Source: Candidatus Latescibacterota bacterium
GTDB taxonomy: Bacteria > Latescibacterota > UBA2968 > UBA8231
NCBI GenBank assembly: GCA_965206595.1
Contig: OZ242214.1
Span: forward strand, 3,808,001 to 3,872,000
Length of the DNA: 64,000 bases
Direction of reading: 5' to 3'
The notes below the pieces were generated by a model. That model had not been told where the DNA came from, made no database searches, and worked only from the letters and a program-made list of their open reading frames with translations. Positions within the stretch are counted from its first letter, which is position 1. Every line of letters starts with the position of its first letter. This document shows positions 5,897-45,695 of this stretch, piece after piece. Both the position numbers and the translations under genes were made by a program.

Positions 5897-6832
5897 CTAT
5901 TGCTGTCGGCCGGGGGATTGAAATACAACCGGGGGCACCCGCTGACCGATTCCGAAACCGGGTTCGATGGCGCCGTCCCGCTCCACGATCCGGGCTTTGC
6001 ACAGCTGCGAGCCGAGCACCTCATTGACCTCGACCAGGGCCACCTGCCCACCCCCCTGGTCGTAGAGGGGCAACACGTCGCCCTGCTCTACGTGGTTCTG
6101 ACTGCCGATGCCGAGAAAAACCTCGTTCTCCTCTACCGACAACACCTTGGCATTCTCGCCGAGCAGGTCTATTGGAGGACGTTCGACCAGGGCCCTGACG
6201 ATCTGCGTGCTGAGATCGCCGAAAGCCTGGGCCGTCAGTTCCCCGAGCTGCAGTTCGAAAAACCGGTCGGAAGCGAACTCGGTGGAAAACAGCTCGCGAA
6301 ACTCCTTGTCCTGCTGCCGGGGCCGGCCGAACAGATCCAGTCCCAGCGGCCGCTCTTCCGATTTCCTGGACACGTCGAGGACATCGACGTCCTCTCCGGT
6401 CGCGACCTTGATCAAACGCACATCGCTGAGCGCGACCTGGGACGAATAGCTCTTGTAGCCGATGAGGTTGGGATCCCCCGCGGTGAAGCGGCGCATGCCG
6501 AAGCGATCCACTCTGCCGACGATGACGAAATCCGCCTCCAGGCAGCGGCCGAGGCTGACGGCGTTTTCCCCATCCTCCAGTTCTTCCCGCGCCGCCAGAA
6601 CCGAGTCCATGGGCACGACGTGAACGGTGGCTGCCTTCGACAGATACTGCCCCAGCAGCACGGGGACATCCCTGGCCAGGTTCCAATCCCCCTGAAACCC
6701 CGCGTCATCCTCGAAAGGCAGCAGGGCAATGCGCAGCGGGCTGTCGCCCTGCCACCGAGCCTTGGTTTGCGCCGGCGCCCCCAATCCACCGAAAACCACC
6801 AGGAGCCCGTTGAGGGCGCACAATCCCCTCAC
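5897..6832 (-). CDS. Exported protein with CsgG/FlgT-like alpha/beta domain and C-terminal FlgT-like beta domain
   Basis: Signal-like N-terminus; RIALLPFED...LGRCLEADFVIVGRV...VRLIKVATGE; C-terminal AKVLSVEENEVFLGIG...GDVL; overlaps upstream stop (GTGA). Confidence 0.55.
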   Translation of the reverse strand: MRGLCALNGLLVVFGGLGAPAQTKARWQGDSPLRIALLPFEDDAGFQGDWNLARDVPVLLGQYLSKAATVHVVPMDSVLAAREELEDGENAVSLGRCLEADFVIVGRVDRFGMRRFTAGDPNLIGYKSYSSQVALSDVRLIKVATGEDVDVLDVSRKSEERPLGLDLFGRPRQQDKEFRELFSTEFASDRFFELQLGELTAQAFGDLSTQIVRALVERPPIDLLGENAKVLSVEENEVFLGIGSQNHVEQGDVLPLYDQGGGQVALVEVNEVLGSQLCKARIVERDGAIEPGFGIGQRVPPVVFQSPGRQQ

Positions 6833-7617
6833 TGTTCAGAATCCGTCGCCTGCGTCACTGCCGTCTTCTCGATTTTCCGATCGAATTCAAAAAAGATGTC
6901 CACCGTTTCCAGGGGCTGTCCGGAGGCGTCGAATTTCAGCACGAAATCCTCGAGGGTGAGCTGTACTCGCGCCACTTCTTCATCCAGGGGAGCAAACGCG
7001 AGCATGCCGCTGTAACTCTCACCCTTGAACACCCGCGTATCTTCGAGGTATGCCGAGCTGCGCACATTCCCCATGCGCGTGTCGAAGCGATAGAACTCGT
7101 TGCCGCTCTGACCGCGGACGCTGCGGTAGTAGCGTTCGAAACTCTCGTGCGGGGAATGGGACGGAATACCGTAAGAGTGAAGTACCTCACCGAGGTCGGT
7201 GCGGAGCACGGCCGCGAGAGGATCGAGCAGGACCTTGGCATAGGTGTCATTGCTCACCGTGATCCTGAAGACGGTAAAGCGATTCGGCGTGTGCCCGAGG
7301 ACCGGGTCGATCCAGTTGCCGTACGTGTAGGGATTCGTCGAAAAACGACCCCGGTAGGAATCGTCGGGGAACTCCCCGTTCAGGGCCTCTTCCGTCATGT
7401 ATTCGACCCTGATCCGCAGGCCCGAAAGCGAATAGGTGACGGCACCGTCCCCCTCGACGATATAGCTGTCCGCAGAAGCCTGCACGGCCTGCGGTACGAG
7501 ATGGCTGTTGTAGAGGATCGCCGGAGGCGTGAGAAAACACCCGCTCAGAAGCAGCCAGAATATGCCGAAGGGCATGGCGGACGATCTTGCCGATTTGCCG
7601 GGTTCGGGGATTTTCAT
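6829..7617 (-). CDS. Putative lipoprotein, unknown function
   Basis: Hydrophobic stretch plus LLSGC lipobox; 4-nt overlaps with both neighbours. Confidence 0.65.
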   Translation of the reverse strand: MKIPEPGKSARSSAMPFGIFWLLLSGCFLTPPAILYNSHLVPQAVQASADSYIVEGDGAVTYSLSGLRIRVEYMTEEALNGEFPDDSYRGRFSTNPYTYGNWIDPVLGHTPNRFTVFRITVSNDTYAKVLLDPLAAVLRTDLGEVLHSYGIPSHSPHESFERYYRSVRGQSGNEFYRFDTRMGNVRSSAYLEDTRVFKGESYSGMLAFAPLDEEVARVQLTLEDFVLKFDASGQPLETVDIFFEFDRKIEKTAVTQATDSEQ

Positions 7618-8870
7618 TCTACAGCACCGCCTTCACTGAAGTAGTCGATCTGCTGCTGCGCGATGGAGCCTTCCTGGGTCAGGGCAAAAACGACGACGTT
7701 GATGCCAAACCGCAGCTGCGGCTCATTGCCGAAATTCTCCGCCCATCTGTGGACATAGCCCTTGTCCGAGTACAGGGCGACGAGACGGTTGCCGATGAAC
7801 ACACCTTCGAGCCGATACGACTGCTGCGGGAGAATGCGGCCGGCGATCGCCCACTGCTCCTGTTCCGACGGAACATCCAGCTCCGATCCCACGGGAGGAC
7901 CGTCGAAATCATAGAACACGTGGTAGAGGGGATGGGTATTCGGTATGGGTCGAAACTTGCCCTGTGTCCCCAGTGCATCGCGGAAGATCTGGCGCAACGA
8001 CGCCTCTGCCTGGCTGTACTCCAGCGTGGCATTGGCATTGTCGGCGAAGATGAACCCGCCGCGGCGCATGTATTCTCCCAGGTTCGTGAGCTCCCTCCCC
8101 GTCAGTTCAAAAGCCTCTTCCGCGGTGATGTAAACGAAGGGGGTGCGAAACAGCTCCTGTGAATCGACGAAGAGATGGGCATCGACCCTGGCCGTGATTC
8201 CAGTCTGGGCATTGACTGCGTCGACCAGGTTGGGAATCGCTTTTGCAGCGCTGTCGAAAGCCGGTTCCAGATCGGTAGCCCACGCCGTACCCAGGTACAC
8301 AAACCCCTTGACTTTGCGGCGATCCGTCGGATCCTGAATGATGAGGCCCTTGTACTTGCCGGTATCGAGTGCATCGAGGTCGAGCAGCTCCTCGCGCATG
8401 GCGATGCGCTTCTCCGGCTCTTTGGTCCCGGTGACCCTCGCCGCCGAGAACTGGACGGGTCCGGTCTGAAGGTCGATCTCGACACCGGTGTCGATGGCGT
8501 ACCCGAAGGTCTCGACTCGCCCGAACATCGACGCTCCCGCGAGACCCCTGGACGCGGGCATGGACAATCTGGGCTTCAGGGCGCTCACCTTTTTGGTAAT
8601 GGCTCGCGGCCTCAGGCGCTGGCGCTTGAGCTGGAACGGCTTTGTCGCCCGCGGCTTGCGAATGATGAGCCTGGCGACAGCGGGCGGCGGGGCCTCATCC
8701 TTCGGCAGCGCCACCAAGTAGACGAAGGCCACCCCCAGGAACCCCATGCTGATCAACAGACCGATGGCGACGAGCCGGTTGGTCTCGCCCCGCAGGCGGG
8801 GCCGGTCGATGCGATCGCTCGGGGCGCCGAAGCGGGTGAACGCAGTTGTCGTGAGGTTCGCGTCCATCAT
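7614..8870 (-). CDS. DUF4159-domain protein with N-terminal TM anchor and basic Pro/Arg/Lys linker
   Basis: TM LVAIGLLISMGFLGVAFVYLVAL; PFVYIT, NLGEYMRRGGFIFADN, IPNTHPLYHVFYDFD, LEGVFIGNRLVALY, RFGINVVVFALT. Confidence 0.8.
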   Translation of the reverse strand: MMDANLTTTAFTRFGAPSDRIDRPRLRGETNRLVAIGLLISMGFLGVAFVYLVALPKDEAPPPAVARLIIRKPRATKPFQLKRQRLRPRAITKKVSALKPRLSMPASRGLAGASMFGRVETFGYAIDTGVEIDLQTGPVQFSAARVTGTKEPEKRIAMREELLDLDALDTGKYKGLIIQDPTDRRKVKGFVYLGTAWATDLEPAFDSAAKAIPNLVDAVNAQTGITARVDAHLFVDSQELFRTPFVYITAEEAFELTGRELTNLGEYMRRGGFIFADNANATLEYSQAEASLRQIFRDALGTQGKFRPIPNTHPLYHVFYDFDGPPVGSELDVPSEQEQWAIAGRILPQQSYRLEGVFIGNRLVALYSDKGYVHRWAENFGNEPQLRFGINVVVFALTQEGSIAQQQIDYFSEGGAVE

Positions 8871-9250
8871 TCGGGAACCGACAGGCTGACCACGGTCGAG
8901 GCCGGCCCCAGAAAAGCGTTCTCATCGGCGGCCCTCACCTGGACCTGGAGCACGGAACCGGCTTCGAGACTCAGGCTGGTTTCCTCGAGGCTTCTCGCCT
9001 CCGGATCGTCGACCGAGCGCGTCTCCACGCTCCCCGTTGCGTCGGTAAAACCGACGACGAAGGCGGCGACGTTTTGCGTCGAGTCGATCTGCCAGGACAC
9101 CTGGACCGCGTCCCCATCCACGCTTGCCTCCACATCCGTCGGCGTCGCGAGGTAATTCTGGTGGTACTGCTGGGGCATCTCGACATCGTTGCTGCAGCCC
9201 AGGGCGATGACGAGCATGGCCGCGAGCCCGGGAACCTTGGCTATCGACAT
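8867..9250 (-). CDS. Small lipoprotein with fibronectin type III-like domain
   Basis: ALGC lipobox; PTDVEASVDGDAVQVSW...QVQVRAADE...GPAS. Confidence 0.65.
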   Translation of the reverse strand: MSIAKVPGLAAMLVIALGCSNDVEMPQQYHQNYLATPTDVEASVDGDAVQVSWQIDSTQNVAAFVVGFTDATGSVETRSVDDPEARSLEETSLSLEAGSVLQVQVRAADENAFLGPASTVVSLSVPE

Positions 9251-9284
9251 TCGCAGTTGCCTTCCTCGAACCGGAACGGGGGAC

Positions 9285-9848
9285 TTAGAAGCGGGCCACG
9301 ACGGCCGCTCCGGGAGTCCCGGGATTTGCAAACGGCACAACGCTCACCGACGCGTCCGCACGAGCCGCGGCCCCACCGAGGACCAGGACGTCGACGAGAT
9401 TGTAGCCATACACCGCCACGGCGAGAGCACCGAACAGCCGGCGCCGCGTGTGCGAGCTATCGAGATCATCCTTTTTCTCCGACAGCCGCTGCCAGCTCTC
9501 TTCGGCTTCCTCGAAAGAGCCGCCCTGCCGCAGGGAATGGTAGCGCTCCTTCTCCAGGCTGAATTGCGCCGACTGGGTGTTGTAATCCTCGTGCGATGTC
9601 AACCAGACCACCAGACAGGCCACCTCGGCCACCACCAGGGCGGTGCCGCGGCTGCGATGTCCGGCCGCCAGCTGTCCCAGCCCCGGGAACACCGCGGAGA
9701 GAGCGATTGCCCGAGGCCGCGTCAGCGCCTGCTTGCCGGACCCGAGCCGTTCGCCCGGCGCATCCTCGGCCTGCGTTTGAGCGCCGCCCGCCAGCAGCGC
9801 TCCCATAACCATTGACAGCACCCACCCTCGCTTGCTCATACGCTCCAT
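9285..9848 (-). CDS. DUF5683-like membrane protein
   Basis: AIALSAVFPGLGQLAAG motif, two hydrophobic segments, YGYNLVD, C-terminal Phe. Confidence 0.6.
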   Translation of the reverse strand: MERMSKRGWVLSMVMGALLAGGAQTQAEDAPGERLGSGKQALTRPRAIALSAVFPGLGQLAAGHRSRGTALVVAEVACLVVWLTSHEDYNTQSAQFSLEKERYHSLRQGGSFEEAEESWQRLSEKKDDLDSSHTRRRLFGALAVAVYGYNLVDVLVLGGAAARADASVSVVPFANPGTPGAAVVARF

Positions 9849-9911
9849 GACGCCGTCTCAAATGGCGCCCCCGTGATGTCCTGCGGTGTATGCACGTCGA
9901 AAAGACCCCGC

Positions 9912-12900
9912 CTACAACCGGGTCGAGACGATCCAGTCCCTGTGCGCCTTGGCGAACTGGAACACCTCTTTGCTTGCCCGTTTGTCTTCGTACATCTCGA
10001 TCACCCGGTCGTATGTCTCGACTGCATCGCGCCATTGACCGAGGCCTTCCAGACAGACGCCCATGTTGCTCAGCGCGCCCAGCGCACTCTCCGTGTCCGG
10101 ATAGCGCGCGCGAATATCCTCGAAAGAGCTCACGGCGCGCGCGAAATATTGCTTCCTGATGGCCCCCTCCTCCACCGCCTCGGCCGAATCCATCAAGGCG
10201 ACCGCCCGCTCGTAATGATCGTAGGCGATGGCCTCCGTGATCTCGGAGATCAGGCGCGGCACCTGGGCTGCCACTGGATCTTCCGGAAAGCGATCCTGGA
10301 CGAGCTTGTAGGCCAGCATCGCCTCTTCATATGACCCGCGGTTATAGGCATCGTCGGCGAGAGTGAATTGGGCAGCGGCTGCGAATTCGCTCTGCGGATA
10401 GCGTTCGAGGAGTGTTCGGAAAGCTGCCATCGCCTCCGCCTCCCGTTTCAACTCGAGCAGACACCACGCCAGATTGTACTGCGAGTTATCGGCCGTGGTA
10501 TCGTCGGGAAACCTTGTGACAATACGGCTGTAGTAGGGGATGGCAGCTTCGAATTCCCCCAACTGGTAGTGGCTTTCGGCGAGGCCGAACAGGATATCCT
10601 GCAGGGCACGCGCCTGCGGATAGTCGCGCAGCAGCTGTTCGAACATGGTCCAGGCGTCACGGAAATCCCTCAAGCTGTAGTGGGTATTGGCCAGGTAGAA
10701 TCCCACCATCAGACGGTGGTCCGGACCCAGGTCCGCGGCCGCCAGATCCGTGAAGACCTTCCTGGCGCGCTCGAGCTCTCCCCGGTCGAAATAGTGAACG
10801 CCTAGGGTCAACCGCATGTCCGTGGAAAAAAACGAGGCCGGGAACCTGCGCAGGGCCTCCTGAAACACCTTGGCCGCCTCGGCGCTACGGCCCATACGTG
10901 CCAGCGCATCCCCTAGCAGGAAGTAGGCCTTCTCCGCGCGGCCGTACTTCTGGCCCGGTGCCAGCGCATCGTCGAACTGCAGATCGATCAGCTGCCTGGC
11001 GACGACGATCGTCTCCGCGAAGTTGTCGTCCTCGTAGTGGAGATCCATTACGCGCGTCAGGAGAGCGGCCTGTTCCTCGGGGGTCCCCGCCTCGGCGGCC
11101 ATGGCGGCGAGCGTCTTCACCGCCTCGCTGCCGCGGTCCTGCTTCAGGTAGACGAGCGCCAGGGCGTCCTTGGCTGAACGAACCTTGCCCTGTTCCTGTA
11201 CGTTTCCGGCGATCCAGTTGAAGTCCTCTTCCGCAAGACCGTACTGCCCGGCGACAAATGCGGCGTTGCCGCGGCTGAACCGCAACGCCTCTTCCAGGTC
11301 GGCACCGATTGGATAGGTAAGGGCGGCGGTGAAATGGGTTACGGCTGTGCCGTAGTCGTTCAGGCCGCTGTAAGCCTGTCCGAGGAGATAGTTGAAACTG
11401 GCGCGCTGAACGTCCTCGCCCGCCTTCGCCAGACCGGCCTCCAGGACGCGGGCAGCGTGATCGAAGCGACCCGTATTTACCAGGCTGTGCCCGGCGCCCA
11501 GGCGCGACCGTGCGTACAGGGAGGAGGTTTCCGGCACCGCCAGGAAAGCGGTCACAGCGCCGTCAAGGTCGGCCACGGCCTGTTGCGACAGCCCCAGGCG
11601 CATGTGGGCGACGTCGACGTAGTCGCTGGCGGCGTGGTTGTCGAGGAGCTGCCGCGCGCTCGCCGCGGCTTCGCCGTACCTGCCGCGATCGAAGTAGAGC
11701 TCCCCGAGCTGCACGAGGGCCCGGGCGGCCTGGCTCCGGTTTTCCGCCTCGTCGATGATCGCCCGGTATTCCGCCTCTGCCAGGGCAACGGAGTCGTCGC
11801 TTCCCAGAGACTGGTAGGCCAGCGCCCTGTTGAAGCGCGCGTCGAGGAAGTAGGATGACGTTTCATCCATGCACAACGTGTCGTACTGGGCGACGGCCAG
11901 CTGCAGCCACTGCCGGCCCGCACCCGGGCGGGCCTCGGACTCTTCCTCGTCGGCCAGCTGCTGATAGGCGCTGCCGATGCGGTAGCGCACACGGCCCTCG
12001 GGAAACCCGGCGACGTTGGCGATATCGGCGAATCCGTCGAGATAGGTTTCGTACTCCCGCACGGACTCCACGTAGCGGGCCTGCGAAAAGAAACTCTCCG
12101 CCAGGGCATACTGAATGCGCGCCCTCAGCGTCCGGTCGGAGGATTGATCGATCGCCTCCCGGTAAGTGCGGATACTGGCATCGAGATCTCCCCTCTCCCG
12201 ATGCAGGTCGGCCATACGCAGGTACGCCTCTTCGACCAGCTTGCGCTCCGAGCCGAACAGGGTGACCGCCTGCCGGTACGCCTCCAGCCCTTCGTCGTAC
12301 CGTCCCCAGCGAGCATAGGAGGTACCGATGCGGATCTGGGCCTTTGCAGCCAGCTCCAGCGCCGTCTCGTTCACCAGGCCGGCGATCTTCTCCCGCCGTA
12401 TCCGCCGCAACTCCACCTCGGTGAGATTTTCGATCTTCTGCCGGATTATCAACTGGCGGTAGCTGTCTATGGCCCGTGCATACCTGCCCGTCTCCAGGTA
12501 GCACTCGCCGATCTGGAAAAGGCTGCGATCGGCCTGGTACCCGCTGGGGAAACGGGCGAGGAGCCGTTCGAATGCGGAAATCGCCCGGTCGTATTCCCCC
12601 ATCTCGTAGAGCGCCCAACCCGTGTTGTAGTAGCCGACGATGACCTGCGGGTGGTCTGGATAGGCATTGATCAGTGCATCGGCCGCCTCGATGACCTGCG
12701 GAAACTTCCCGGCCTTGAAGTAGAGATCGATGAGCCGTCCGTATGCCAGGACCTTCAGGACTTCGCTGGTCGAACCGTCGATCACCTGTTGAAAAGCGTC
12801 GACAGTCGCTGCAAACGCCTCATCGGCCTGTACCTGCAGTCGTGCCCGCCCGACCTCGTCACCCTCCTCCTCCGCCTGCTGCGCGAAGCCGGCATGGAGC

Positions 12901-13172
12901 TTGGAGAAGGAATTGCCGATCTGGTAGTGGGCGGCTTCCTGGACGGGAAATTCATCATCACCCACGGCGACCTGGATGCCCTCCACGTCCAGGGCCCGGC
13001 TGCGTATCCGCAGGACCGCTTCGTACTTGGTGATCGCCTGATCGTAGGCACCTTCGGCATAGAATCGCTGACCCTCGCGAAAGGTGCTCACCATGTCTTC
13101 CTGGTTGGGCACACGCGAGGCGAGAAAGGTGCCCCCGGCGGTAATCAAAGTCAGCAAAAGAAAGAGGTTCAT
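9912..13172 (-). CDS. Large tetratricopeptide-repeat envelope protein (BamD/CpoB-like TPRs)
   Basis: N-terminal hydrophobic leader; numerous TPRs such as YDRAISAFERLLARFPSG and FRTLLERYPQSEFAAAAQFTLA. Confidence 0.9.
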   Translation of the reverse strand: MNLFLLLTLITAGGTFLASRVPNQEDMVSTFREGQRFYAEGAYDQAITKYEAVLRIRSRALDVEGIQVAVGDDEFPVQEAAHYQIGNSFSKLHAGFAQQAEEEGDEVGRARLQVQADEAFAATVDAFQQVIDGSTSEVLKVLAYGRLIDLYFKAGKFPQVIEAADALINAYPDHPQVIVGYYNTGWALYEMGEYDRAISAFERLLARFPSGYQADRSLFQIGECYLETGRYARAIDSYRQLIIRQKIENLTEVELRRIRREKIAGLVNETALELAAKAQIRIGTSYARWGRYDEGLEAYRQAVTLFGSERKLVEEAYLRMADLHRERGDLDASIRTYREAIDQSSDRTLRARIQYALAESFFSQARYVESVREYETYLDGFADIANVAGFPEGRVRYRIGSAYQQLADEEESEARPGAGRQWLQLAVAQYDTLCMDETSSYFLDARFNRALAYQSLGSDDSVALAEAEYRAIIDEAENRSQAARALVQLGELYFDRGRYGEAAASARQLLDNHAASDYVDVAHMRLGLSQQAVADLDGAVTAFLAVPETSSLYARSRLGAGHSLVNTGRFDHAARVLEAGLAKAGEDVQRASFNYLLGQAYSGLNDYGTAVTHFTAALTYPIGADLEEALRFSRGNAAFVAGQYGLAEEDFNWIAGNVQEQGKVRSAKDALALVYLKQDRGSEAVKTLAAMAAEAGTPEEQAALLTRVMDLHYEDDNFAETIVVARQLIDLQFDDALAPGQKYGRAEKAYFLLGDALARMGRSAEAAKVFQEALRRFPASFFSTDMRLTLGVHYFDRGELERARKVFTDLAAADLGPDHRLMVGFYLANTHYSLRDFRDAWTMFEQLLRDYPQARALQDILFGLAESHYQLGEFEAAIPYYSRIVTRFPDDTTADNSQYNLAWCLLELKREAEAMAAFRTLLERYPQSEFAAAAQFTLADDAYNRGSYEEAMLAYKLVQDRFPEDPVAAQVPRLISEITEAIAYDHYERAVALMDSAEAVEEGAIRKQYFARAVSSFEDIRARYPDTESALGALSNMGVCLEGLGQWRDAVETYDRVIEMYEDKRASKEVFQFAKAHRDWIVSTRL

Positions 13173-13270
13173 TTTTTCGGCCTTGCGATTCGCCCCCTGT
13201 CAAGTGATCCGGTTAATCAGCATTTGCAGTCGGACCCCGGCACGAATCAGCTATTGTTTTCCACGACGCC

Positions 13271-16200: not shown

Positions 16201-16423
16201 TCGTGTAGGGCACCTCGTCGAACCGGCCCACGAAGGGTTGCTCGAACAGAATCCGCGACGGACCCAGCCCGACCCGCTCCGGTTCTTCCGCCGCCTCCTG
16301 GCCGCGTCCGGACCCGGGGACGAGGAGGAGGAATACCGCGCACAATGCGGCCCTTCCGGCAGCTGCGGACACTGGAGTTTTCGATTCCGCGTCGTTCACG
16401 GGTGCTGAGTCGTCTGTTGCCAC
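13271..16423 (-). CDS. Large exported protein, paralog A (predicted outer-membrane beta-rich protein with Asp-rich Ca-binding loops)
   Basis: Signal-like segment; GDEIRTSLTPLT, EDNDDNDRYPD, GVFPGLDADNDGIPD, GVDFNHNDFIDSRENDW shared with 16433 and 19234; amphipathic C-terminal strands. Confidence 0.75.
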   Translation of the reverse strand: MATDDSAPVNDAESKTPVSAAAGRAALCAVFLLLVPGSGRGQEAAEEPERVGLGPSRILFEQPFVGRFDEVPYTNYGFENYSRRPELSSNLRYHYNSMGDPLLYGTEAVTWVERRGLGVQRGYSAIGESGGHGQTGNAFERLFGHVIVGTDGTDAWQAKFIYGDEIRTSLTPLTMKLSNLNGLRVDAGTGKDSFSALFSTLPFSRNSGQGPSTAGDINARVPTMMLGAHYERKVGFLNFGGTFLNVHQYEPLMASKFESLQGRPGAVQTAPALIAIRILDDSPLDGRGGPVLHDVNVYVDGVLRPELEPFVVHLHKRGDDRQIYVQELLSNGNRKGLPPRPASNDYQTVNRGGAFSTYESYINYLATDVDVFYRGYEFPFFIDHLYYRDFKLHGPDHVVDEESGKTVHSEFAHELAEPSGDFLGMYTKEDLPQAFDGETYGILYIDLESVQQFITSVEVELVLANDYRLELSEIPIARSTEFLPPDSHQDRYRYAPFFRTVARAGGNPRDGVPKRVRVKVGVPTGLRLASANVYGVVKGFELNAEFARGSQFSMYPSGLPGPRVPQDAIAINALEREQTPGARHTISDNAYYVTLHRDFRRWDLRGELFSMGPLFTTEFRSFIAADEFNLSGTPIAYNNTILHRLVEDNDDNDRYPDSWYTNYFDKKQGQHDIDGVFPGLDADNDGIPDTNRNLNQQPDDLEPFLMYDVDPQVFEYGVDFNHNDFIDSRENDWEADLPYDPDLRGMHLYGKYKPLAGLSLALGLLDAEQIAGSVPSEVLYSRLDYNRQVPTIGRFFTELSLERIRDGVEDPLSVYSDRVLTQADIQATNFPGLARNINIVPFQEEPLEDPLNYKNSTLVRLFTEARWRTVPNLAMHNKVKVEVNHQHGGELWDGTGQESDRLSRWTMAHRIDYNWKIWDRLSLFSGFKIRYRKEWKRSLDLPVAHQRHLIPLMKLEYRLTTRTRFQLGVQGITSKFPYSVTDFAEPEESFEQRDTVLMMTNLSRYFGYIISTNAGVRLRTKKFDDPAADEFRGERFTAAFINAILGFEDD

Positions 16424-16432
16424 TCTGTGGTC

Positions 16433-19231: not shown

Positions 19232-19233
19232 GG

Positions 19234-21933
19234 TCAGCCTATGAAGACCTTGAAGAAGTACTCCACGAATCCCACTGACGGCCGCTGCGATCCCGTGAAG
19301 CTGGTGGAGGTGCGGTAGCCCCCGAACAGAAGGGCGAGATCGTAGCCGCGGTGATTGCTCCTGTTCTGCAGAAACGCCGTGTACGTCCGGCGGCGGAAAT
19401 CCCGCTCGGGACTTGTCGGGTCGAGAGATTTCTCCGGCAGGAAGGGCAGACCTTGAACGCCGGTTTTCAGGTCCGTGTGCGGACCGATGCGGCAGTCGAT
19501 TCGCAGAACAGGGATGATCCAGCGCGTCTGCCGGTCGGGGATGGCCCGCTCGGGAAACTTGCTGCGCTGAAAAACATGCTTGAACTGCGGCAGGATGGTG
19601 AACCGCTTCAGGCGCCAGGTATAGTCGGCCATGTTGACCATGGCGAAGTGGGTGATGGTTCCCGGCGCCGCCGTCTTCGGATCGTCAAGGGACGGCCCCG
19701 TCAGATCGACATAGTTGAAGGAGACGACATTGCGAAAATTCAAGCCTTCGATGGTCTTCAGCTCGGTTTCGAAATGGGTCAGATTGTCGACGCTGTCCCG
19801 GCGCTGGAGCAGGTCCGGCTCCAACTCGTAGCGGCTCGAACGGGTCAGACCGGAGGGCAGCGTTTCCGTTTCGATGAACTGGTAGATGGTGTTGCGAATA
19901 TCGTCCTGCACCCACTTGATCCGGTGGTTAAGACGAATTTCACCCAGCTCTTCCCAAGTGCGCTCGTACCGACCTTCGAGATAACCGGCATCGTTGGACA
20001 AACCCAGAGCCGGCTGGCGGATGCGATAGGCCCCGAAACGCACCTTCGTGCGCGCCGTCGGCCTGACCGAGGCGAAGGCGTGCAGGCCGCGATGGTCAGC
20101 CGGATAGAGGTAATCCGGCAGATTGTCGTTTTCCCGCAGGTCGGCGATGCCGTTGTTGTTGAAATCGTCGCCGAACACCATTTCGGGCGGATCCACGTAG
20201 TATCCCAGAAACGGGGTAAATGCATTTCCGCCCACGTTCAGGTCGAGGATCCCGTCGTGGTTGAGGTCCAGCCCGGGAAAGACCCCGTAGCCTTCACCCG
20301 AAGAGCGCGTGAAAAAAGCAAGCGGATCCCCGTGTTCGGTCCAGTCGGGCCAGGCATCCAGATCGTCGTTGTCCTCGACTAGGGCGAAACGTTCGTAAAC
20401 CTTGCCGCCGACCGTGTGTCCGATAGCGGACCCGCGGAAGATCGAGAAATCGGTAGTGTAGTCAGCGGGGACATCGAACCACTCGATGCCGACGTCCGCT
20501 TGCGAACTGACTGGTCTAAGGAGGTTGAGGTAGAAAGTGGAACTGTCGCGATCGTGGCGGCCGCCGCCGGGTGAGGGCACCTTGAGAAACCGGGTGCTCC
20601 GGGCGAACTCCCCCTGGAGACGGCTTCCCAGGATTTTGGCTTCGAAGTCGAGCCCCAGTATTCCCAGCCCGGTTGGAAACCCGTAGCGGAAGGTGACGCG
20701 GCGGAGGTTGGAGTTGCTGCCTGGATTGCCGCTGGCCCGCAACGTGTTGTTCCAGTCGTAGAAGAGATCACCGTATTCGGTTCCGGAATCGAACAGCGGT
20801 ACCTGCATCCCTCCGACCACGTCGACGCTGTAGTCGTTGGCCAGAATGGCCTCGAAGCGAACGTCTTTCGTCGCTTCCGGAACCTCGTACTCGTAAAAGA
20901 TCACGTCGGTGCCGTTGGCTGCCAGGGGAGCGCTTCCCGAGGCCGGCGCCGCTTCCAGCGAGATCCGATCCAGCAAGATTGGAAAAAAACTTTCGTTGCT
21001 TGCGGCGACGGCTGCCGGCAACCAGGGTCCATTGCGCCGGATGTGCTCCACGTCTCCCGGACTCAACGGAATGGTGTTGCTGCGATCGAAAGTGATGGGG
21101 ATGTGCTCGAGGAGGCGCTCGATCCTTCCCACCCGGAGCTGCTCCACCGCCTCGCCGTCGGCAAACATCGTCACCCCGTAGATCGCCGCCCCCGGTGCCG
21201 TGTCGTGTGGCGCATCATCGGTAAAGAAGACGAACACCCGGCGCAGCCCGCCGTCCCGGACCACTCCCGGGACATCCCCCTTCAAGCCGTTGAGATTGGC
21301 ACTGGCCTCACCGTCGAAGCGGTGAGCGTTGACGTAGGTCGTTCCTATCCTGAGGAGGTCTCCGATCTGGCTCTCCCAGTGAGCGCCGAACAGGGTGGTA
21401 CCGAAAACTCGGCGCTGTTCGATAAACGCGTCGCTCGGCACATAGGAGCTGGGAGCTGTGAGCGGATCTCGCAGATGCGTGGCGATTACGCTGAATCTGC
21501 TTTTGCGCGAAGAGCCGTCCCAGCGGATCCCGTTGAAATTCGGGATGTTCAAGGTCATGGGAGTGAAGGTGGTGCGCAGGTGCTCACCGATTATCAGGCG
21601 GGTGGACCAGCGGCCGAACCCCTCGTCGGCGATGACGAGCTTCTGGAAGAAATTGTTATAGCCCCCGCTGCGCGCTTCGAAGCTGCCTATCCGGCCCGGG
21701 GCATTGCGGCGTACCTCGCTGAATTCCAGGATATCGACGCCATCGATCAGAAGGTCGCCGAAGATGTCGAAACGGCGGTTCTCCCCTTCGAAATCGTAGT
21801 CCCGGTAACCGTTGGCGCCGTAGTTCTCGAATACCTCGTTTGCCCACTGTGTGCGAAAGTCCCTGGACAGGAACTGGGCATCGGACGAGAAAGCTGACAG
21901 GAAAAGACAGAAAGACAGGCTGAGAAGACGCAT
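19234..21933 (-). CDS. Large exported protein, paralog C
   Basis: Signal peptide; GEHLRTTFTPMT, EDNDDLDAWPD, GVFPGLDLNHDGILD, GDDFNNNGIADLREND; ends YFFKVFIG. Confidence 0.75.
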   Translation of the reverse strand: MRLLSLSFCLFLSAFSSDAQFLSRDFRTQWANEVFENYGANGYRDYDFEGENRRFDIFGDLLIDGVDILEFSEVRRNAPGRIGSFEARSGGYNNFFQKLVIADEGFGRWSTRLIIGEHLRTTFTPMTLNIPNFNGIRWDGSSRKSRFSVIATHLRDPLTAPSSYVPSDAFIEQRRVFGTTLFGAHWESQIGDLLRIGTTYVNAHRFDGEASANLNGLKGDVPGVVRDGGLRRVFVFFTDDAPHDTAPGAAIYGVTMFADGEAVEQLRVGRIERLLEHIPITFDRSNTIPLSPGDVEHIRRNGPWLPAAVAASNESFFPILLDRISLEAAPASGSAPLAANGTDVIFYEYEVPEATKDVRFEAILANDYSVDVVGGMQVPLFDSGTEYGDLFYDWNNTLRASGNPGSNSNLRRVTFRYGFPTGLGILGLDFEAKILGSRLQGEFARSTRFLKVPSPGGGRHDRDSSTFYLNLLRPVSSQADVGIEWFDVPADYTTDFSIFRGSAIGHTVGGKVYERFALVEDNDDLDAWPDWTEHGDPLAFFTRSSGEGYGVFPGLDLNHDGILDLNVGGNAFTPFLGYYVDPPEMVFGDDFNNNGIADLRENDNLPDYLYPADHRGLHAFASVRPTARTKVRFGAYRIRQPALGLSNDAGYLEGRYERTWEELGEIRLNHRIKWVQDDIRNTIYQFIETETLPSGLTRSSRYELEPDLLQRRDSVDNLTHFETELKTIEGLNFRNVVSFNYVDLTGPSLDDPKTAAPGTITHFAMVNMADYTWRLKRFTILPQFKHVFQRSKFPERAIPDRQTRWIIPVLRIDCRIGPHTDLKTGVQGLPFLPEKSLDPTSPERDFRRRTYTAFLQNRSNHRGYDLALLFGGYRTSTSFTGSQRPSVGFVEYFFKVFIG

Positions 21934-21942
21934 GGAGCCCGG

Positions 21943-24090
21943 CTAATACACCATGCCCACGACACCCGCAGCGGTTTCGGCATCGGGCTCGATATCCACG
22001 ACCAGACGGTACAGGTAGAGTCCCGGAGGAAGCAGCTCGCCGCCCTGATCGCGTCCGTCCCATGAGAAGGGAAGTCCGGTCCGTCCGCCCGGGCCTGGCA
22101 CATAGTAACCGGCATCCAGGCGCTGGTCGGGCAGGGTCCGGACCAGAGACCCGCCAAGATCATAGATCCCGACCTGCACCGGTGCGTCGGACACGCGGCC
22201 CAGAATGAATCCGAGGCTGAACCTGTCGTTGATCCCGTCATCGTTCGGCGAGAAGACCGCAGGGAAAGGGTGCACATCGCTGAGAATGGAGAGAGCGAAG
22301 CTCGTTGCCGCCGAGACCACCGAATAGGGCTCTCCCGTCAGCGGATCCACTCCTTCCCGCTGCTGTACGGAGAGAGGAGAGTTGGAGTCGGGTGCGTAGA
22401 GCAACCCCTGGAATTCATGACTGGCAGCAAGCAGCCGGGTCGTGAAGGGGATTTCGAGTTCCAGGCTGGCGCTGATCGGGGGATCGAAGGCGATAACCAG
22501 CGAGTCAGCCGTCGCGTAGGTGCCCGCGGCATCGATGCCGACCTCTCCGCTCACCGCCGGGATATCGAGCTGTGCCGGCCATGGCGTCAGGATGACGAGC
22601 CGTTGGACGCCGGCGTCGTCATCTCCGATTTCCAGGTCGAGGGAATAGGTGAACGTGGAATCGACCCCGATCGACACCAGCGACGGCGCGATCGAGGCCA
22701 AGGCGTCGGTTGCTGCCAGCGGTCCTCTGTTGTAGAAGAAAACAAGGCTGTCGAGCTGCGGACTCGCGAAAGGATCGGGTGTCCGCATGCGCAGTTGGAA
22801 CTGGAGAAAGCGCCGCGGTTCGGGTACGGTCAGGCGAGTCTCCGGATCCGGACTCCAGGCCGACCAACCGCTCCAGTTCTCCCCGTCGTCACCGCTGCGG
22901 AACTGGACTGCTATTTCAGCAGTGGCCGAAACGGAATCGAAGCGCACGGCTCGGTCATAATTTTTACGCTCGGGGACACCGAAATCCAATGGTGGAGACA
23001 GATAAGTCCCCCTCTCATCGAACCCGTTTCCGAAGACTTCCAGCTCCCCCACTCGCGGAGCGGCGTTGCGATTGGCGAATTCGGTGACCACCATGCGGAC
23101 ATAGCGCGCGATGATGGTCGCAAAATCGACGGCGGTCTCACGGAAGTCGGTGATCTGGTTCCGGGAGCCCACATCGAGGTAGCTCACGCCATCCTTGCTC
23201 ACCAGAACACTATAGCCGCGCAGCGAGTTGTCTTCGTAGCTTCCGGAGCTCCCCGGGGGCTGCGTTATCACCTTGACGCGGTTGATGGGAAACAGGCGCC
23301 CGAGGTCGACCTCGACCTCATCGAACAGCACCCTGCCCCCCTTTGCATAACTGACCGGGGAACCGATATCGCCGTCGATGAGCTTTAGGTCCTTCGAGAA
23401 CGTGTTGAAGGCGAGATTCTGTCCCTCAAAAGAACGCAGCCGCAGGCCGCCGCGACTGCCGTCGAGACCCCCGGGGAATCCCGCCACGGATCGCGCTCTG
23501 GTGAGATCGAGGTCGGCGAACTCGGCAAATCCGCCCGGGTCGAGGCTGCCGGCCTGGACCGAACGCCAAGTGACTGCCGCTTCCTTGCCGTCCACGTCTT
23601 CGCTATGACTGGACAGCTTGTTGAGCCGCAGCGTCATCCAGTCGGCGCCGTCTTCGTTGTCGAGAGCGAAGTCGGTCCAGAACCACGGTGTCAGGCGGTC
23701 GGTGGGAGAACTCGGCAGGAGTACGCCCTCGGCCTCCAGCACGACGAACATCCCATAGCCTCCGGAGGTCCCGTCGTGCTCGACGACCGCAGCGACCATG
23801 TTGGTACGCCTGTTGAACGGAACATCGTAGACCTCAACCGATCCGGGGTCGTCGTCCGTTCCAACCAGATCGCCGTTGAGATAGAGGCTGTAGCGATCCG
23901 CAGCGGCGATGCGGATGCGGCCATCGACAGCATCCGCGAATTCGGCGAAACCCAGGTAAAAGGTTGTGGTTGCCCACGTATCGACGGAAGCGCGTTCGAG
24001 GATCTGGGAGGAGGCCTGCGAAGCGATTGCCGCCACAAGCAAGGCACTCGGAAGGCGCCACCCGGCTCTATGTAGTGGTCCGGTTCCCAA
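21943..24090 (-). CDS. Secreted discoidin (F5/8 type C)-domain protein with C-terminal CHU_C/FlgD-like Ig domain
   Basis: EVDLGRLFPINRVKV...YSVLVSKDG...ARYVRMVV (discoidin); FSPNDDGINDR and WDGRDQGGELLPPGLYLY tail. Start probably TTG 24090, because the longer ORF to 24288 runs through a terminator. Confidence 0.7.
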   Translation of the reverse strand: MGTGPLHRAGWRLPSALLVAAIASQASSQILERASVDTWATTTFYLGFAEFADAVDGRIRIAAADRYSLYLNGDLVGTDDDPGSVEVYDVPFNRRTNMVAAVVEHDGTSGGYGMFVVLEAEGVLLPSSPTDRLTPWFWTDFALDNEDGADWMTLRLNKLSSHSEDVDGKEAAVTWRSVQAGSLDPGGFAEFADLDLTRARSVAGFPGGLDGSRGGLRLRSFEGQNLAFNTFSKDLKLIDGDIGSPVSYAKGGRVLFDEVEVDLGRLFPINRVKVITQPPGSSGSYEDNSLRGYSVLVSKDGVSYLDVGSRNQITDFRETAVDFATIIARYVRMVVTEFANRNAAPRVGELEVFGNGFDERGTYLSPPLDFGVPERKNYDRAVRFDSVSATAEIAVQFRSGDDGENWSGWSAWSPDPETRLTVPEPRRFLQFQLRMRTPDPFASPQLDSLVFFYNRGPLAATDALASIAPSLVSIGVDSTFTYSLDLEIGDDDAGVQRLVILTPWPAQLDIPAVSGEVGIDAAGTYATADSLVIAFDPPISASLELEIPFTTRLLAASHEFQGLLYAPDSNSPLSVQQREGVDPLTGEPYSVVSAATSFALSILSDVHPFPAVFSPNDDGINDRFSLGFILGRVSDAPVQVGIYDLGGSLVRTLPDQRLDAGYYVPGPGGRTGLPFSWDGRDQGGELLPPGLYLYRLVVDIEPDAETAAGVVGMVY

Positions 24091-24239
24091 TTTGGCAACC
24101 CTTTGTTTTTTTCTGGCGTTAAGGCGGGAAACCGGGCCGTTCGTCGGGATCCGATTGTCCCCGCACGGGGGCGGACAGCTCCTCATACGCCGGTTCCTTT
24201 GTCGATTACCTACCGCAAGCACCTGGCGGAGCGCGCCAC

Positions 24240-24273
24240 AAAAAAGGTGCCACCGGGAACTACCGGTGGCACC
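24240..24273 (-). terminator. Intrinsic terminator after the 24294-26312 gene
   Basis: Perfect 11-bp stem GGTGCCACCGG/CCGGTGGCACC with 6-nt loop, followed by a T-run on the minus strand. Confidence 0.85.
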
Positions 24274-24293
24274 CCGAAACAACTGCAAGCTCC

Positions 24294-26312
24294 TTATTTG
24301 AGGAAGGTGACCTTCTTGCTGAGGCTCAGATTGGGAGCTTCGATCTTGTAGATGTACACGCCGCTGGACACTTCCACCCCGTCGGCATTCCTGCCGTCCC
24401 AGGTGACCTCGAAATTGCCGGCGGGCAAGCTCTCATCAACCAGGTCGACGACGAACTGGCCTTGAGTGTTGAAGACTTTGACCGACACCGGCGCTTCCCA
24501 CGGAAGGGAGAAACGGATAGTGGTTTCCGGGTTGAAAGGATTTGGAAAAGCATCGCCCAGGGCAGCGGCATTCGGCGTGGCATCGCCTTCGACCTCCTCG
24601 ACCGCAGTCGCCGGGTCCCCGAGGCTTACGCGCTTCTGATCGTACGGCAACTGCACGAGCCAGTGGAAAGAATAGTAGCTGACGATCTGGTCCTCGGTCG
24701 GGGGCGGTGCCCAGTCATTCGTTCTCTGGCCGGGGTCATTCTCTCCGACGCTGATGTACATGCCGTCCCAAGCACTGTCGTCGTGATCGACGATCATCGT
24801 CCACTGCGGGTAGGAACTGGGGATATTCGTCGGCTGCAGCAGGAACAGGCCCGAGCCGTCGCCGCCGAGCACGGAACCGTAATCGGTGAGGTTCACGGCG
24901 GAGTGACCGATGGAGATCCAACCCCATTTGGTCGAGTTGAACCCGTACTTGGCCCCGTCGCCCGAGGTATTGCCGTAGGTGGGCTCGGCGCCGAAGCTGC
25001 CCGGGACATACATATCGCCGAAGCCGTCGCCGTTGCGGTTGATCCATCTGATGCCACCGCTGTCGTAATCCATGCTCATGACGATGGAGGTGTGGTGACC
25101 CGAGAGGGTCAGGCCGGTTGGATCGTTCTTGCCGGCGTAGTCTCTGGCTGACCAGCCAGGTCCGCCGACGCGGTCGCTGCCGTTGTTGTCATACAGAAAG
25201 ATGTCGGACAGATCCCACAGATCGAGATTTTCACCACTGTCCAGATCCCAGACCGCAACCGTGCCCACTGTGCCGTCTACGCCCGTGGTGGTGTAAATCT
25301 TGTTGTTGCCGGGATCGACTGCGACTCCGTACTTGCGCGTCGGCTGAAGCTCTCTGTAGTCGATGAAACCGTTGACGGCCCCATGGTCCGCACCCCAGCT
25401 CTCGTCGACGGAAGCCGACTGTGTTGCCGGATCGTAAGAGCCCCTGAAGAGCAGTCCGCCACCCTGATTCTGGCCGTTGGCAACGTACGTCCGCATATCG
25501 TCGGTGACGTTGCCGCTGGTTCCCAACGGAGTCATGTCGAAGACGTGAAACGGCAGGGGGCGGTCGCTCTCCGCCCACCAGAACACGTGCCGGCCGACGG
25601 GAATGTCGCCCGCGTCGGGGGCTGAATTGTGGATTTCGGTGCGGTCGATGTACGTCGCCGCTTCCGGGTTGTTGATGAAGTCGTTGTTCATGTCGACGAC
25701 CCACTCGTAGGGCCGCGTCAGCGTCTCGGCGTCGGGATCGATGATGAGCATTTCGCCCGTTCCCTGCCTGCCGGGAGCATAACCGACGATGTGCGCCGTG
25801 GCGTCGGCGTCGAAGGCTGCGAGGAACAGGTCGTACGAACCCCGGGACACGACGTTCCCTTCCATGTCGCGGCCGTTCCAGACAATGGTGTTGTCGCCGG
25901 TGTCGAAACGTTCGCCGGAAGACCTGTAGACCAACAGGTCCACGTTCTGGTAAACATGCCAGCCCGGCTCGGCGTAATCTCCGAGAACGTGCGGAGCCGG
26001 TCCTTCACCTGTGATGGTCAGCGGCGGATTCTCTCCCTTGGTGTAGATGATCAGCCACACGGTAGCGGAACCGCTCTGCGTTCCTTCGAGCGTGAAGGGA
26101 ATGGACAGATCGGAACCGTCGAATGCGTAGTCTTCTATTGGTGAAAGACCGCTGATGACGACCGTCTCTGGACGGCCGCCGCTGGTCATGTCGTTGAGCC
26201 CCAGACTTCCGTCCCCCACGAAGCGCGAGAAACGCTCTTCCTGGGCATTCGACACACCCGCAAGGAGCACCAGGGATGCCGCTCCTGCTCCAATTATGCG
26301 ATACAAAGACAT
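24294..26312 (-). CDS. Secreted protein with internal FlgD-like Ig module and C-terminal T9SS type A-like/FlgD sorting domain
   Basis: Signal peptide (VSNA|Q); WNGRDMEGNVVSRGSY; C-terminal TAVEE...FPNPFNPETTIRFSL...WDGRNADGVEVSSGVYIYKI...KKVTFLK; AAAGGAGG RBS. Confidence 0.85.
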   Translation of the reverse strand: MSLYRIIGAGAASLVLLAGVSNAQEERFSRFVGDGSLGLNDMTSGGRPETVVISGLSPIEDYAFDGSDLSIPFTLEGTQSGSATVWLIIYTKGENPPLTITGEGPAPHVLGDYAEPGWHVYQNVDLLVYRSSGERFDTGDNTIVWNGRDMEGNVVSRGSYDLFLAAFDADATAHIVGYAPGRQGTGEMLIIDPDAETLTRPYEWVVDMNNDFINNPEAATYIDRTEIHNSAPDAGDIPVGRHVFWWAESDRPLPFHVFDMTPLGTSGNVTDDMRTYVANGQNQGGGLLFRGSYDPATQSASVDESWGADHGAVNGFIDYRELQPTRKYGVAVDPGNNKIYTTTGVDGTVGTVAVWDLDSGENLDLWDLSDIFLYDNNGSDRVGGPGWSARDYAGKNDPTGLTLSGHHTSIVMSMDYDSGGIRWINRNGDGFGDMYVPGSFGAEPTYGNTSGDGAKYGFNSTKWGWISIGHSAVNLTDYGSVLGGDGSGLFLLQPTNIPSSYPQWTMIVDHDDSAWDGMYISVGENDPGQRTNDWAPPPTEDQIVSYYSFHWLVQLPYDQKRVSLGDPATAVEEVEGDATPNAAALGDAFPNPFNPETTIRFSLPWEAPVSVKVFNTQGQFVVDLVDESLPAGNFEVTWDGRNADGVEVSSGVYIYKIEAPNLSLSKKVTFLK

Positions 26313-45163: not shown

Positions 45164-45191
45164 TCTTTGCGGGTTGCCGCGCGCAGCGGCG

Positions 45192-45455
45192 TGTTTCCGT
45201 ACGATGAGAAGCAACATCGAACCGATGAAAGACATCGCCAGAATGCTGCGGCGTCACCAAGAGCTCATCCTCAATTGGTTCAGGGCCAGGAAGCAGTTCA
45301 ACAACGGCATTGCCGAGGGCTTGAACCTGAAATGGAATCTGACGGTGAGAAAAGCATTCGGATTCTGCACCTTCAAGGCACTCCAAATCGCTTCATTCCA
45401 TCAGCTTGGCGATTTACCCGAGCCACAATTCACCCACGAATTCTACTGACGAGCC
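45192..45455 (+). mobile_element. ISL3-family transposase 3' remnant with right end
   Basis: RSNIEPMKDIARMLRRH..LILNWF...NGIAEGLN...RKAFGF...LGDLPEPQFTHEF; element ends ...TGACGAGCC (GGCTC terminus). Confidence 0.85.
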
Positions 45456-45477
45456 TTTTTTCAAAAGGAAACCAAAA

Positions 45478-45693: not shown

Positions 45694-45695
45694 GT

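Follow-up and report, generated by a model that had tools for sequence, protein, structure and literature searches.

A conserved trans-envelope gene cassette of the FCB superphylum with predicted giant outer-membrane barrels and a putative proton-driven motor

To our knowledge, proton-driven 5:2 motors, i.e., those of the Ton and Tol systems, the flagellar stators, GldLM and AglRQS, are the sole means by which bacteria perform work at the outer membrane, and every new output module of such motors has opened a field. Here we describe an eleven-gene operon, g1 to g11, in a 64,000-nucleotide (nt) stretch of the genome of a Candidatus Latescibacterota bacterium (the window: contig OZ242214.1 of assembly GCA_965206595.1, positions 3,808,001 to 3,872,000). 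An earlier note, made from the sequence letters, had proposed a dedicated system that exports or assembles a surface structure. What stands of this proposal is a conserved, undescribed envelope system with proteins that carry tails of the kind known from type IX secretion systems (T9SS); the dedicated secretion locus does not stand. The operon is one copy of a conserved trans-envelope cassette of the Fibrobacteres-Chlorobi-Bacteroidetes (FCB) superphylum, not a self-contained secretion system. Its conserved core is composed of the tailed surface protein g2, one to four predicted giant barrels of the g3-g5 type, the tetratricopeptide repeat (TPR) protein g6, the membrane anchor g9 and the lipoprotein g10. 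As judged from gene content, the defining feature appears to be a proton-driven ExbB/ExbD motor combined with a TonB-like transducer, g9, and because of this pair the cassette is placed in the Ton/Tol/Agl-Glt class of energised machines. The best explanation (probability about 0.45) is that it encodes a Ton-like, proton-driven complex for surface capture and uptake of polysaccharide-derived substrates. Coordinates without a prefix refer to the window; G000 denotes the window's own genome, and L and G numbers are labels of other loci and genomes.

In TonB, TolA and the transducers whose head is of the von Willebrand factor A (vWA) type, a histidine in the transmembrane (TM) helix serves motor binding. 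The cassette shares with the Ton system the ExbB/ExbD motor, found in its orthologous operons, and a transducer with an N-terminal TM helix followed by a Pro-rich basic linker. As with SusC/SusD pairs, large multi-copy barrels are associated with glycan-binding surface proteins and far outnumber the machinery sets. However, the g9 head is a DUF4159 domain rather than TonB_C, its TM helix lacks the histidine (SHLS motif), and the barrels, which are seemingly larger, match neither the Plug nor the TonB_dep_Rec family. Moreover, the barrels are partnered by a tailed protein of the T9SS type in place of a SusD lipoprotein, and a giant TPR protein and the g10 lipoprotein come in addition.

In the predicted vWA-headed force transducers, a TM helix is joined by a disordered, Pro-rich linker to a globular head of the alpha/beta type; their genes occur in the order TPR-tolQ-tolR-tolR, with no function assigned (Williams-Jones et al. 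2025, PMC12204202; this and the other papers cited are used for parts of their text). Both the architecture of g9 and the gene order in relatives match that description, but the g9 head is DUF4159 (the family of PDB entry 4i66), not vWA, and DUF4159 is absent from the main text of the paper. The cassette further differs by its giant barrels, T9SS-type cargo and g10, and by its occurrence in FCB phyla. The core complex of the Agl-Glt machinery is encoded by aglRQS together with gltD, gltE, gltG and gltC (Luciano et al. 2011, PMC3169522). The two are alike in their motor genes (one ExbB-like, two ExbD-like), in large TPR proteins, in an anchor similar to TonB, in outer-membrane barrels with a surface protein and, on g10 of sister cassettes, in a domain of the GltG/GltJ type. 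The differences are that g6, g9 and the barrels have no family-level match to Glt proteins, that none of the 11 products of the window locus matches NF033768 (AgmX/PglI), and that Agl-Glt has no DUF4159 head, giant barrels or T9SS-type tails. Of the machines studied so far, the Ton system and the Agl-Glt core complex come closest. The cassette is nevertheless not a member of the Ton, vWA-transducer or Agl-Glt systems, from each of which it departs in a defining feature, namely the kind of head, the Plug domain or the Glt protein families.

In Bacteroidota, type-B cargo of the T9SS stays attached to PorP-like barrels (Gorasia et al. 2022, PMC9143113), and SprF is linked to a moving track (Liu et al. 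2025, PMC12635249). As there, a gene for a type-B-like tailed protein adjoins a barrel gene, a periplasmic TPR partner is present and the complex would be driven by a proton motor, and distant cassettes carry a PorP_SprF-like gene. The window locus itself, however, lacks a PorP/SprF gene, its giant barrels show no detectable homology to PorP-like ones, the motor is ExbB/ExbD rather than GldL/GldM, and a twin-cysteine tail is missing. Weak SlpA_C sequence matches in barrel paralogs and a few family members recall the SlpA proteins, but the cassette has no S-layer homology (SLH) domain or coiled-coil stalk and its genomic context is unrelated. With Tol-Pal it shares only the CpoB-like repeats of g6; the locus encodes no PD40 or OmpA_C domain. 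In Fibrobacter succinogenes, an OmpA protein (FSU_2396), the TPR proteins FSU_2397 and FSU_2398, and ExbB, two ExbD and TonB (FSU_2400-2403) are upregulated on cellulose, and a complex with T9SS-tailed cellulases contained the OmpA and one of the TPR proteins (Raut et al. 2019, PMC6851124). Compared by description only, this set is alike in its FCB host and in having an outer-membrane protein, TPR proteins and ExbB-ExbD-ExbD-transducer at consecutive locus tags, but its annotations place the transducer in the TonB family and the outer-membrane protein in the OmpA family. Among the papers listed in a literature search, which was not exhaustive, none describes the cassette, and none was found joining Latescibacteria, type IX secretion and the outer membrane; DUF4159 was named in the Pfam database paper only.

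Conservation of the cassette and its motor genes

A scan of species-representative genomes gave 666 candidate stretches, of which 553 encode barrel relatives; the analysis retained 69 loci, many of which end at contig edges. A tblastn search with the 11 products recovered the full g1-g11 order in L001, L006 and L031 and a near-complete order in several more, i.e., the gene set is syntenic in relatives, in line with the earlier note. Over the 69 loci, a barrel is present in 68, a g2-like gene adjoining a barrel in 58, a g6-like TPR gene in 52, g10 in 50, g9 in 40 and ExbB in 32, with all five core genes together in 31 of these foreign loci. Gene order is conserved well past chance. The hosts are mostly labelled Latescibacterota; the others are metagenome-assembled genomes (MAGs) labelled Gemmatimonadota, KSB1, Zhuqueibacterota, Ignavibacteria, Kryptoniota, Handelsmanbacteria and Bacteroidetes, and one of the hits, L037, is an Ignavibacterium album MAG. 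The closest complete ortholog of the operon belongs to another genus and is that of G012 (64-83% identity). Of 121 Latescibacterota genomes in one sample, 71 have barrels and 69 have g10, and the distribution over families is nearly identical for the two (own family 40/40, f2 0/29 and f4 0/13 for both).

Pfam matches to MotA_ExbB (96-106 bits) and ExbD (92-119 bits) lie between the TPR and DUF4159 genes in cassettes of five differently labelled phyla (KSB1, Zhuqueibacterota, Ignavibacteriaceae, Kryptoniota and Gemmatimonadota labels). The orthologous operons of G012 and G009 read g6-g11-exbB-exbD-exbD; in the closest orthologous operons (G012, G009, L007 and L026) g11 is followed directly by exbB-exbD-exbD, and exbB is found just downstream of g11 in L001, L005, L006, L007, L026, L031, L075 and L077. 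In the window's genome the exbB ortholog (G000:C1:3803780-3804532, plus strand) is located just outside the window, 9.4 kb beyond g11 on the opposite strand, while the exbD1 and exbD2 orthologs (G000:C1:3760559-3761403, minus strand) are 52 kb off and 1.8 kb upstream of a second full cassette. These motor genes are intact, with identities to the G012 operon genes of 78% (exbB), 63% (exbD1) and 59% (exbD2), and the 9.4-kb and 52-kb stretches that separate them from g11 are filled with genes of sugar-acid metabolism. The motor genes are missing from the window operon because they are dispersed in the genome; the locus would thus represent a unit of 14 genes reduced to its structural part, the motor genes having been scattered through a rearrangement. 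The genome separately encodes a classical exbB-exbD-exbD-tonB set.

The locus was earlier taken to be a single dedicated one, which does not hold. The genome contains three full cassettes (the window operon and those at genome positions 3734182-3758792 and 6490841-6510328), one barrel-less motor cluster and about 12 minimal loci, in which CHU_C-tailed proteins, often F5/8C-bearing, are paired approximately 1:1 with barrels. In total, 43 barrel-family matches in the 7.05-Mb genome were merged to about 32 barrel genes at 15 loci, compared to 24 Plug-domain matches in the same genome. One in-frame stop codon (four TGA, one TAG) was seen in each of five of the 43 matches, at genome positions 1213917, 6667529, 323976, 321058 and 942102; these matches may be pseudogenes, assembly errors or cases of read-through.

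The cluster without a giant barrel (L071, G000:C1:213001-231000) adjoins an ISL3 transposase. Its products comprise a g11-like protein, a propeller of the PD40 (TolB-like) family, proteins similar to CBM9 and to g10, a 311-residue barrel like PorV/PorQ (71 bits, below the cut-off of 90), a 1081-residue TPR protein, ExbB, ExbD and a DUF4159 anchor that carries the TM histidine. The cluster resembles a module of the PorP/PorE type combined with a motor of the same kind. SurA-like, PPIC-type peptidyl-prolyl isomerases were also observed in or beside giant-barrel cassettes, in the window's genome and in a Gemmatimonadota-labelled MAG (L080:7906-9558 and L033:18764-20404).

Predicted parts of the complex

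The three large proteins that the earlier note took for paralogs are related over much of their length: g3 aligns with g4 end to end at 27% identity (E 4e-68), and g5 with g4 at 32% identity in the stretch of residues 454-1015 (E 4e-71). None of the three has a Pfam or NCBIfam match, and thus none to Plug or TonB_dep_Rec. Fold predictions identify them as outer-membrane barrels and not as soluble enzymes. The modelled barrel has approximately 26-28 strands (DSSP strand count), seemingly more than TonB-dependent receptors, and is devoid of an N-terminal globular plug. The closest solved barrel is SlpA of Deinococcus-Thermus (PDB 8ae1/7zgx; TM-score 0.19), a fold match only modestly above those to other barrels. 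SlpA_C (PF21620) scores 15.6-18.2 bits, below its cut-off of 35 and solely in paralogs at other loci; a precomputed SlpA_C match is found in 3 of the 55 barrel-family members found, and no SLH domain was found on g3-g5. The mature proteins have no conserved cysteine, cysteines being confined to the signal peptides or their vicinity and to residue 814 of g3. The possibility that the barrels are enlarged PorP proteins was rejected: hhalign against 13 PorP/PorV-like small barrels gave a probability of 0.3% and aligned signal peptides only.

The tailed protein g1 scores 37.1 bits with TIGR04183 (cut-off 23), i.e., it carries the type-A T9SS C-terminal domain (CTD) that had been recognised earlier; PF18962 (25.7 bits) is just under its cut-off of 27. 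The protein further matches FlgD_ig (54.2 bits) and its body is probably a beta-propeller; Atlas clusters of NHL/FlgD_ig T9SS cargo (0.83-0.87) serve as a lead only. Genes like g1 (at least 40% coverage) are present in 20 of the 69 loci. For g2 the discoidin label given in the earlier note is borne out (F5_F8_type_C, 38.5 bits), while the type-B tail is reached at threshold only, with CHU_C (PF13585) at 27.0 bits, exactly its cut-off of 27, and TIGR04131 at 18.4 bits, below 35; the g2 paralogs of minimal loci score 37.2 and 42.9 bits with CHU_C. Marginal matches of g2 to PDB sequences are to the carbohydrate-binding module family 32 (CBM32) domains of NagH and NagJ (E 0.018).

As noted earlier, the 11 products include no core protein of the type I-IX secretion systems, no TonB-dependent receptor and no SprA, and matches to PorU/PorZ cover the CTD only; GldK/L/M/N and PorV do not reach their cut-offs on any of the products either. 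SprA (TIGR04189) is encoded elsewhere in the genome (488 and 116 bits; 615.5 bits in one 2061-residue frame, G000:C1:6657307-6662565), and because of this the tailed proteins probably exit via the ordinary T9SS. The best PorV match in the genome is 141 bits, below the cut-off of 250. None of the 11 products matches PorP_SprF and there is no cognate PorP/SprF-like gene beside g2; neither PorP_SprF (PF11751) nor GldM (TIGR03517/PF12081) has a match in the genome, a weak negative since the control genomes were silent too. A PorP_SprF-like gene (35.8 and 28.6 bits) does occur in L034 and L065, which are distant cassettes, and is placed there between the barrel and the g2-like gene.

The labels given earlier to g6 (TPR), g7 (DUF5683) and g9 (DUF4159) hold. 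TIGR02795 matches g6 with 211 bits over 8 stretches and TIGR03302 with 140 bits, while PorW/SprE (85 bits) is below its cut-off of 250. DUF5683 (PF18935) on g7 scores 29.8 bits (cut-off 26.7), and the gene is found in 13 of the 69 loci, including the Ignavibacteriaceae locus L044. The g8 protein, present in 9 loci, has no Pfam match, so that its earlier fibronectin type III (FN3) label is unconfirmed.

In g9 a TM helix (residues 31-57) is followed by a 90-residue linker with 10 Pro and 18 Lys/Arg and by a globular head, which is DUF4159 (PF13709, 100 bits, residues 202-397); a vWA domain has no Pfam match on g9. The family profile matches PDB 4i66 (Hoch_4089; E 4.9e-23), the one solved, uncharacterised structure of the family. 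Among 36 aligned members of the g9 family, a TM histidine is present in 19 and an N-terminal, cytoplasmic RFxxP[ST]D motif in 17; the two classes are nearly exclusive, L022 alone carrying both.

The lipobox cysteine of g10 is invariant (36 of 36 rows). The g10 profile found nothing among PDB sequences at E<=1 and Foldseek nothing at E<=0.001; the structural likeness is to a generic Ig-like sandwich only. In the sister cassettes L050, L009, L020 and L010, g10 ends with an AgmX/PglI domain (53.6-62.1 bits, cut-off 40); in Myxococcus, the gliding proteins GltG and GltJ terminate in this TonB_C-like domain. Ignavibacteriaceae and Kryptoniota loci encode fusions of a g10-like domain with a weakly matching DUF4159 domain. 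Complex prediction with alignments for the g9 head (146-418) and mature g10 (28-262) gave a score of 0.00, which speaks neither for nor against binding. The CsgG/FlgT-like assignment of g11 made in the earlier note is weakly supported through relatives: g11 itself has no Pfam match, while among 29 relatives CsgG (PF03783) matches weakly in 9 (best E 4.5e-05), FlgT_C in 3 and FlgT_M in 2, and the family profile finds FlgT (PDB 3w1e) at E 0.011.

Map and surroundings of the operon

All 11 co-oriented open reading frames (ORFs) read in the earlier note were confirmed (Table 1). Overlaps of 4 nt are found at g8/g9, g9/g10 and g10/g11, and gaps are short between g3 and g4 (2 nt), g2 and g3, and g4 and g5 (9 nt each), and longer between g5 and g6 (98 nt) and g6 and g7 (63 nt). 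The terminator that had been read after g1 is real, and because it falls inside the nominal g2 ORF, the start of g2 is most likely near 24090; the resulting length is comparable to that of orthologs (713-764 residues). The g8 start is probably the internal ATG near 9250, directly ahead of the lipobox. Signal peptides, lipoboxes (g8 and g10) and the single TM anchor of g9 were assigned by eye and from hydropathy.

Table 1. Features of the operon in the window.
Feature	Position	Strand	Description
g1	24294..26312	-	672-aa secreted protein, signal peptide, type-A-like CTD
Intrinsic terminator hairpin, g1/g2	24275-24244	-	13-bp stem, 9 G-C pairs, 6-nt loop, T-run
g2	21943..24090 (nominal ORF to 24288)	-	~715-aa surface protein, discoidin/CBM32-like and CHU_C-like CTD
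g3	19234..21933	-	899-aa predicted giant outer-membrane barrel paralog
g4	16433..19231	-	932-aa predicted giant barrel paralog; Asp-rich loop region, conserved N-terminal extension
g5	13271..16423	-	1050-aa predicted giant outer-membrane barrel paralog
g6	9912..13172	-	1086-aa exported TPR scaffold, CpoB/YbgF- and BamD-like units
g7	9285..9848	-	small DUF5683 membrane protein
g8	8867..9250 (nominal ORF to 9340)	-	small lipoprotein
g9	7614..8870	-	TonB/TolA-like inner-membrane anchor, DUF4159 head
g10	6829..7617	-	Ig-like beta-sandwich lipoprotein, core partner of g9
g11	5897..6832	-	secreted, FlgT/CsgG-like (weak support)

A strong Shine-Dalgarno sequence, AAAGGAGG, is located 7 nt ahead of the g1 ATG. 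The sigma-54 promoter pattern has 3 matches (3.57 expected), none upstream of g1 or g2, and the match at 24238 is the T-run of the terminator; a sigma-70 scan gave 1 site (3.6 expected). The sole Rfam match in the window is a tRNA at 61864-61937. A horizontally acquired island was considered and rejected, as the GC content of the locus (0.60-0.64) does not set it apart from its flanks. At 44001-48000 the GC content falls to 0.56-0.59, compared to 0.60-0.67 elsewhere, and few confident ORFs are found.

Genes for two MR_MLE dehydratases and for an aldo-keto reductase, together with a UxuA-like gene, flank the operon. The window further contains four PhyH-type dioxygenase genes (39519-40358, 48437-49414, 49484-51097 and 57299-58117), surrounded by many ORFs without a Pfam match. 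A polytopic protein with DUF6785 and DUF6784 (at least 8 hydrophobic segments) is encoded at 28443-30377 on the plus strand, and more examples are found at L073:578-2545, L070:27-1592 and L081:5825-7822. The DUF6785 family has 47 matches in the genome, roughly 40 genes. This putative permease was considered as a member of the system and rejected, its enrichment near barrels being seen in the window's genome only.

Two RNA-library runs (one study, sponge metagenome label) contain 0.06 and 0.05 of the sampled words. Among the contig pieces listed, 6 of 8 and 5 of 8 fall on g1 (24285-26324; 90-99% likeness) and none spans the g1/g2 terminator; the pieces are contigs from libraries that may contain DNA, so they cannot rank genes and allow no conclusion on expression. 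DNA runs of other studies contain near-identical copies of the whole operon; X4 contigs cover 6400-17411 and 20818-26390 with 7-12 differences.

Capture and uptake weighed against other functions

According to the favoured explanation, i.e., energised capture and uptake, a stator of the ExbB5-ExbD2 type would use the proton gradient to pull or turn g9, which would cross the periplasm and act on the giant barrels jointly with g10, g11 and the TPR scaffold. The g1 and g2 proteins would reach the surface through the T9SS (SprA) of the genome, and type-B-tailed lectins would then remain docked on the neighbouring barrels in the same manner as type-B cargo on PorP-like barrels. Energised import of glycans would parallel that by TonB with SusC/SusD, and the minimal lectin-barrel pairs may share a few sets of TPR protein, g9, g10 and motor, as TonB-dependent receptors share TonB. 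Uptake is favoured because the barrels have diversified together with lectin-like partners, because the system is accessory and multi-copy, because few machinery sets would serve many barrels, and because the comparable Fibrobacter set is induced on cellulose. The number of barrel genes (about 32, compared to 24 Plug-domain matches), their 1:1 pairing with tailed F5/8C proteins in minimal loci and the CBM32-like domain of g2 also speak for it, as does the presence of a DUF6785 membrane protein near barrels: 8 of the 15 loci have one at a distance of up to 10 kb, where 2.7 were expected (p about 0.002 with random placement).

Several observations weigh against uptake. Transport through the barrels is a prediction, and the 1:1 pairing of tailed proteins and barrels fits anchoring or export as well. 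Family scans detected no Plug domain and no recognised TonB box in the barrels, and the barrel model is of moderate quality (mean pLDDT 72.7), with the N-terminal segment and the Asp-rich loops below 50. The TM helix of g9 lacks the histidine, and the N-terminus of the protein carries an RFxxPSD motif instead. No exbB or exbD gene is found by Pfam in the window, and because the motor genes lie 9.4 kb and 52 kb away, co-regulation is lost here. The genomes of the co-occurrence sample are related, so that the counts overstate the support and the agreement between barrels and g10 is suggestive only; in the same-genus genomes G001 and G002, which harbor the barrel and g10 families, the best g11 identities are 34% and 33%. 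DUF6785 is found at only 1 of the 69 foreign loci (L010).

The pairing is also an argument for a function in export or anchoring, in which the barrels would be translocons or permanent anchors, and the TPR protein, g9, g10, g11 and the motor would assemble or release the tailed proteins. Such a system, which is unlikely in our view, would be an accessory of the T9SS or a route parallel to it, similar to PorP/SprF-PorE with type-B cargo. Tailed proteins and barrels occur approximately 1:1 in minimal loci, distant cassettes contain the PorP_SprF-like gene, type-B cargo is known to stay on PorP-like barrels (PMC9143113, in part), and g1 with its own terminator and strong ribosome-binding site resembles a major structural subunit. 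On the other hand, with SprA in the genome at 615 bits no second translocon is needed, the giant barrels have no detectable homology to the PorP-like ones (hhalign 0.3%), both kinds coexist in distant cassettes, and family scans found no ATPase and no secretin-, usher- or Omp85-type part among the 11 products. The earlier proposal that the barrels export or assemble surface proteins is possible, yet no result favours it.

A still less likely function is that of a surface motility or adhesin-moving machine of the Agl-Glt type or with a SprB-SprF-GldK-like track, where the motor would drag barrel-anchored adhesins laterally. One ExbB and two different ExbD genes mirror AglR/Q/S, the GltG/GltJ-type AgmX/PglI domain is found on g10 of sister cassettes, the Agl-Glt core complex (motor, TPR and TonB-like protein) is clustered, with no function assigned, in non-gliding bacteria including Fibrobacter (from part of PMC3169522), and SprF is coupled to a moving track in Bacteroidota (from part of PMC12635249). 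Yet the 11 products yield no GltD/E-specific or Gld family match at threshold, the mature barrels have no conserved cysteine for an SprF-type disulfide link, the cassette encodes no AglZ/MreB-linked cytoplasmic track parts, and 32 barrels with varied lectins resemble substrate diversification rather than a single motility adhesin. Finally, an envelope tether of the Tol-Pal or SlpA/OmpM type, with barrels as anchors and g6, g10 and g9 as analogues of CpoB, Pal and TolA, is highly improbable. Such a role would agree with the CpoB/YbgF-like units of g6 (TIGR02795, 211 bits), with SlpA as the closest solved barrel and the SlpA_C match in 3 of 55 family members, and with the PD40 (TolB-like) propeller of the barrel-less motor cluster. 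A housekeeping tether is not expected to be multi-copy or to be absent from whole families of the same class (f2 0/29, f4 0/13 searched), however, and neither SLH, OmpA_C nor any other peptidoglycan-binding domain was found on the 11 products; the SlpA_C scores (15.6-18.2 bits, cut-off 35) come only from paralogs at other loci.

What is new in the cassette is the DUF4159 head of the transducer, the giant-barrel family and the wiring of such a motor to T9SS-type surface proteins. The dispersed motor genes of the window operon offer a natural experiment on whether its structural genes can function when the motor is provided in trans. It is conceivable, although doubtful, that the cassette represents a third kind of proton-driven outer-membrane import besides the TonB-dependent transporters and SusC/SusD, in which plug-less barrels would be gated via a DUF4159 transducer and covered by T9SS-delivered lectin lids; the approximately 32 barrels at 15 loci would then be the Latescibacterota counterpart of polysaccharide-utilisation loci. 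The cassette is spread over several mostly uncultured FCB phyla and has undergone strong expansion in Latescibacterota of the sponge and sediment types, which are presumed to subsist on complex glycans. If the cassette imports or handles polymers, it would account for the ability of these abundant bacteria to feed in the absence of large SusC/SusD repertoires, and it would provide the first functional context for DUF4159, DUF5683 and the barrel family.

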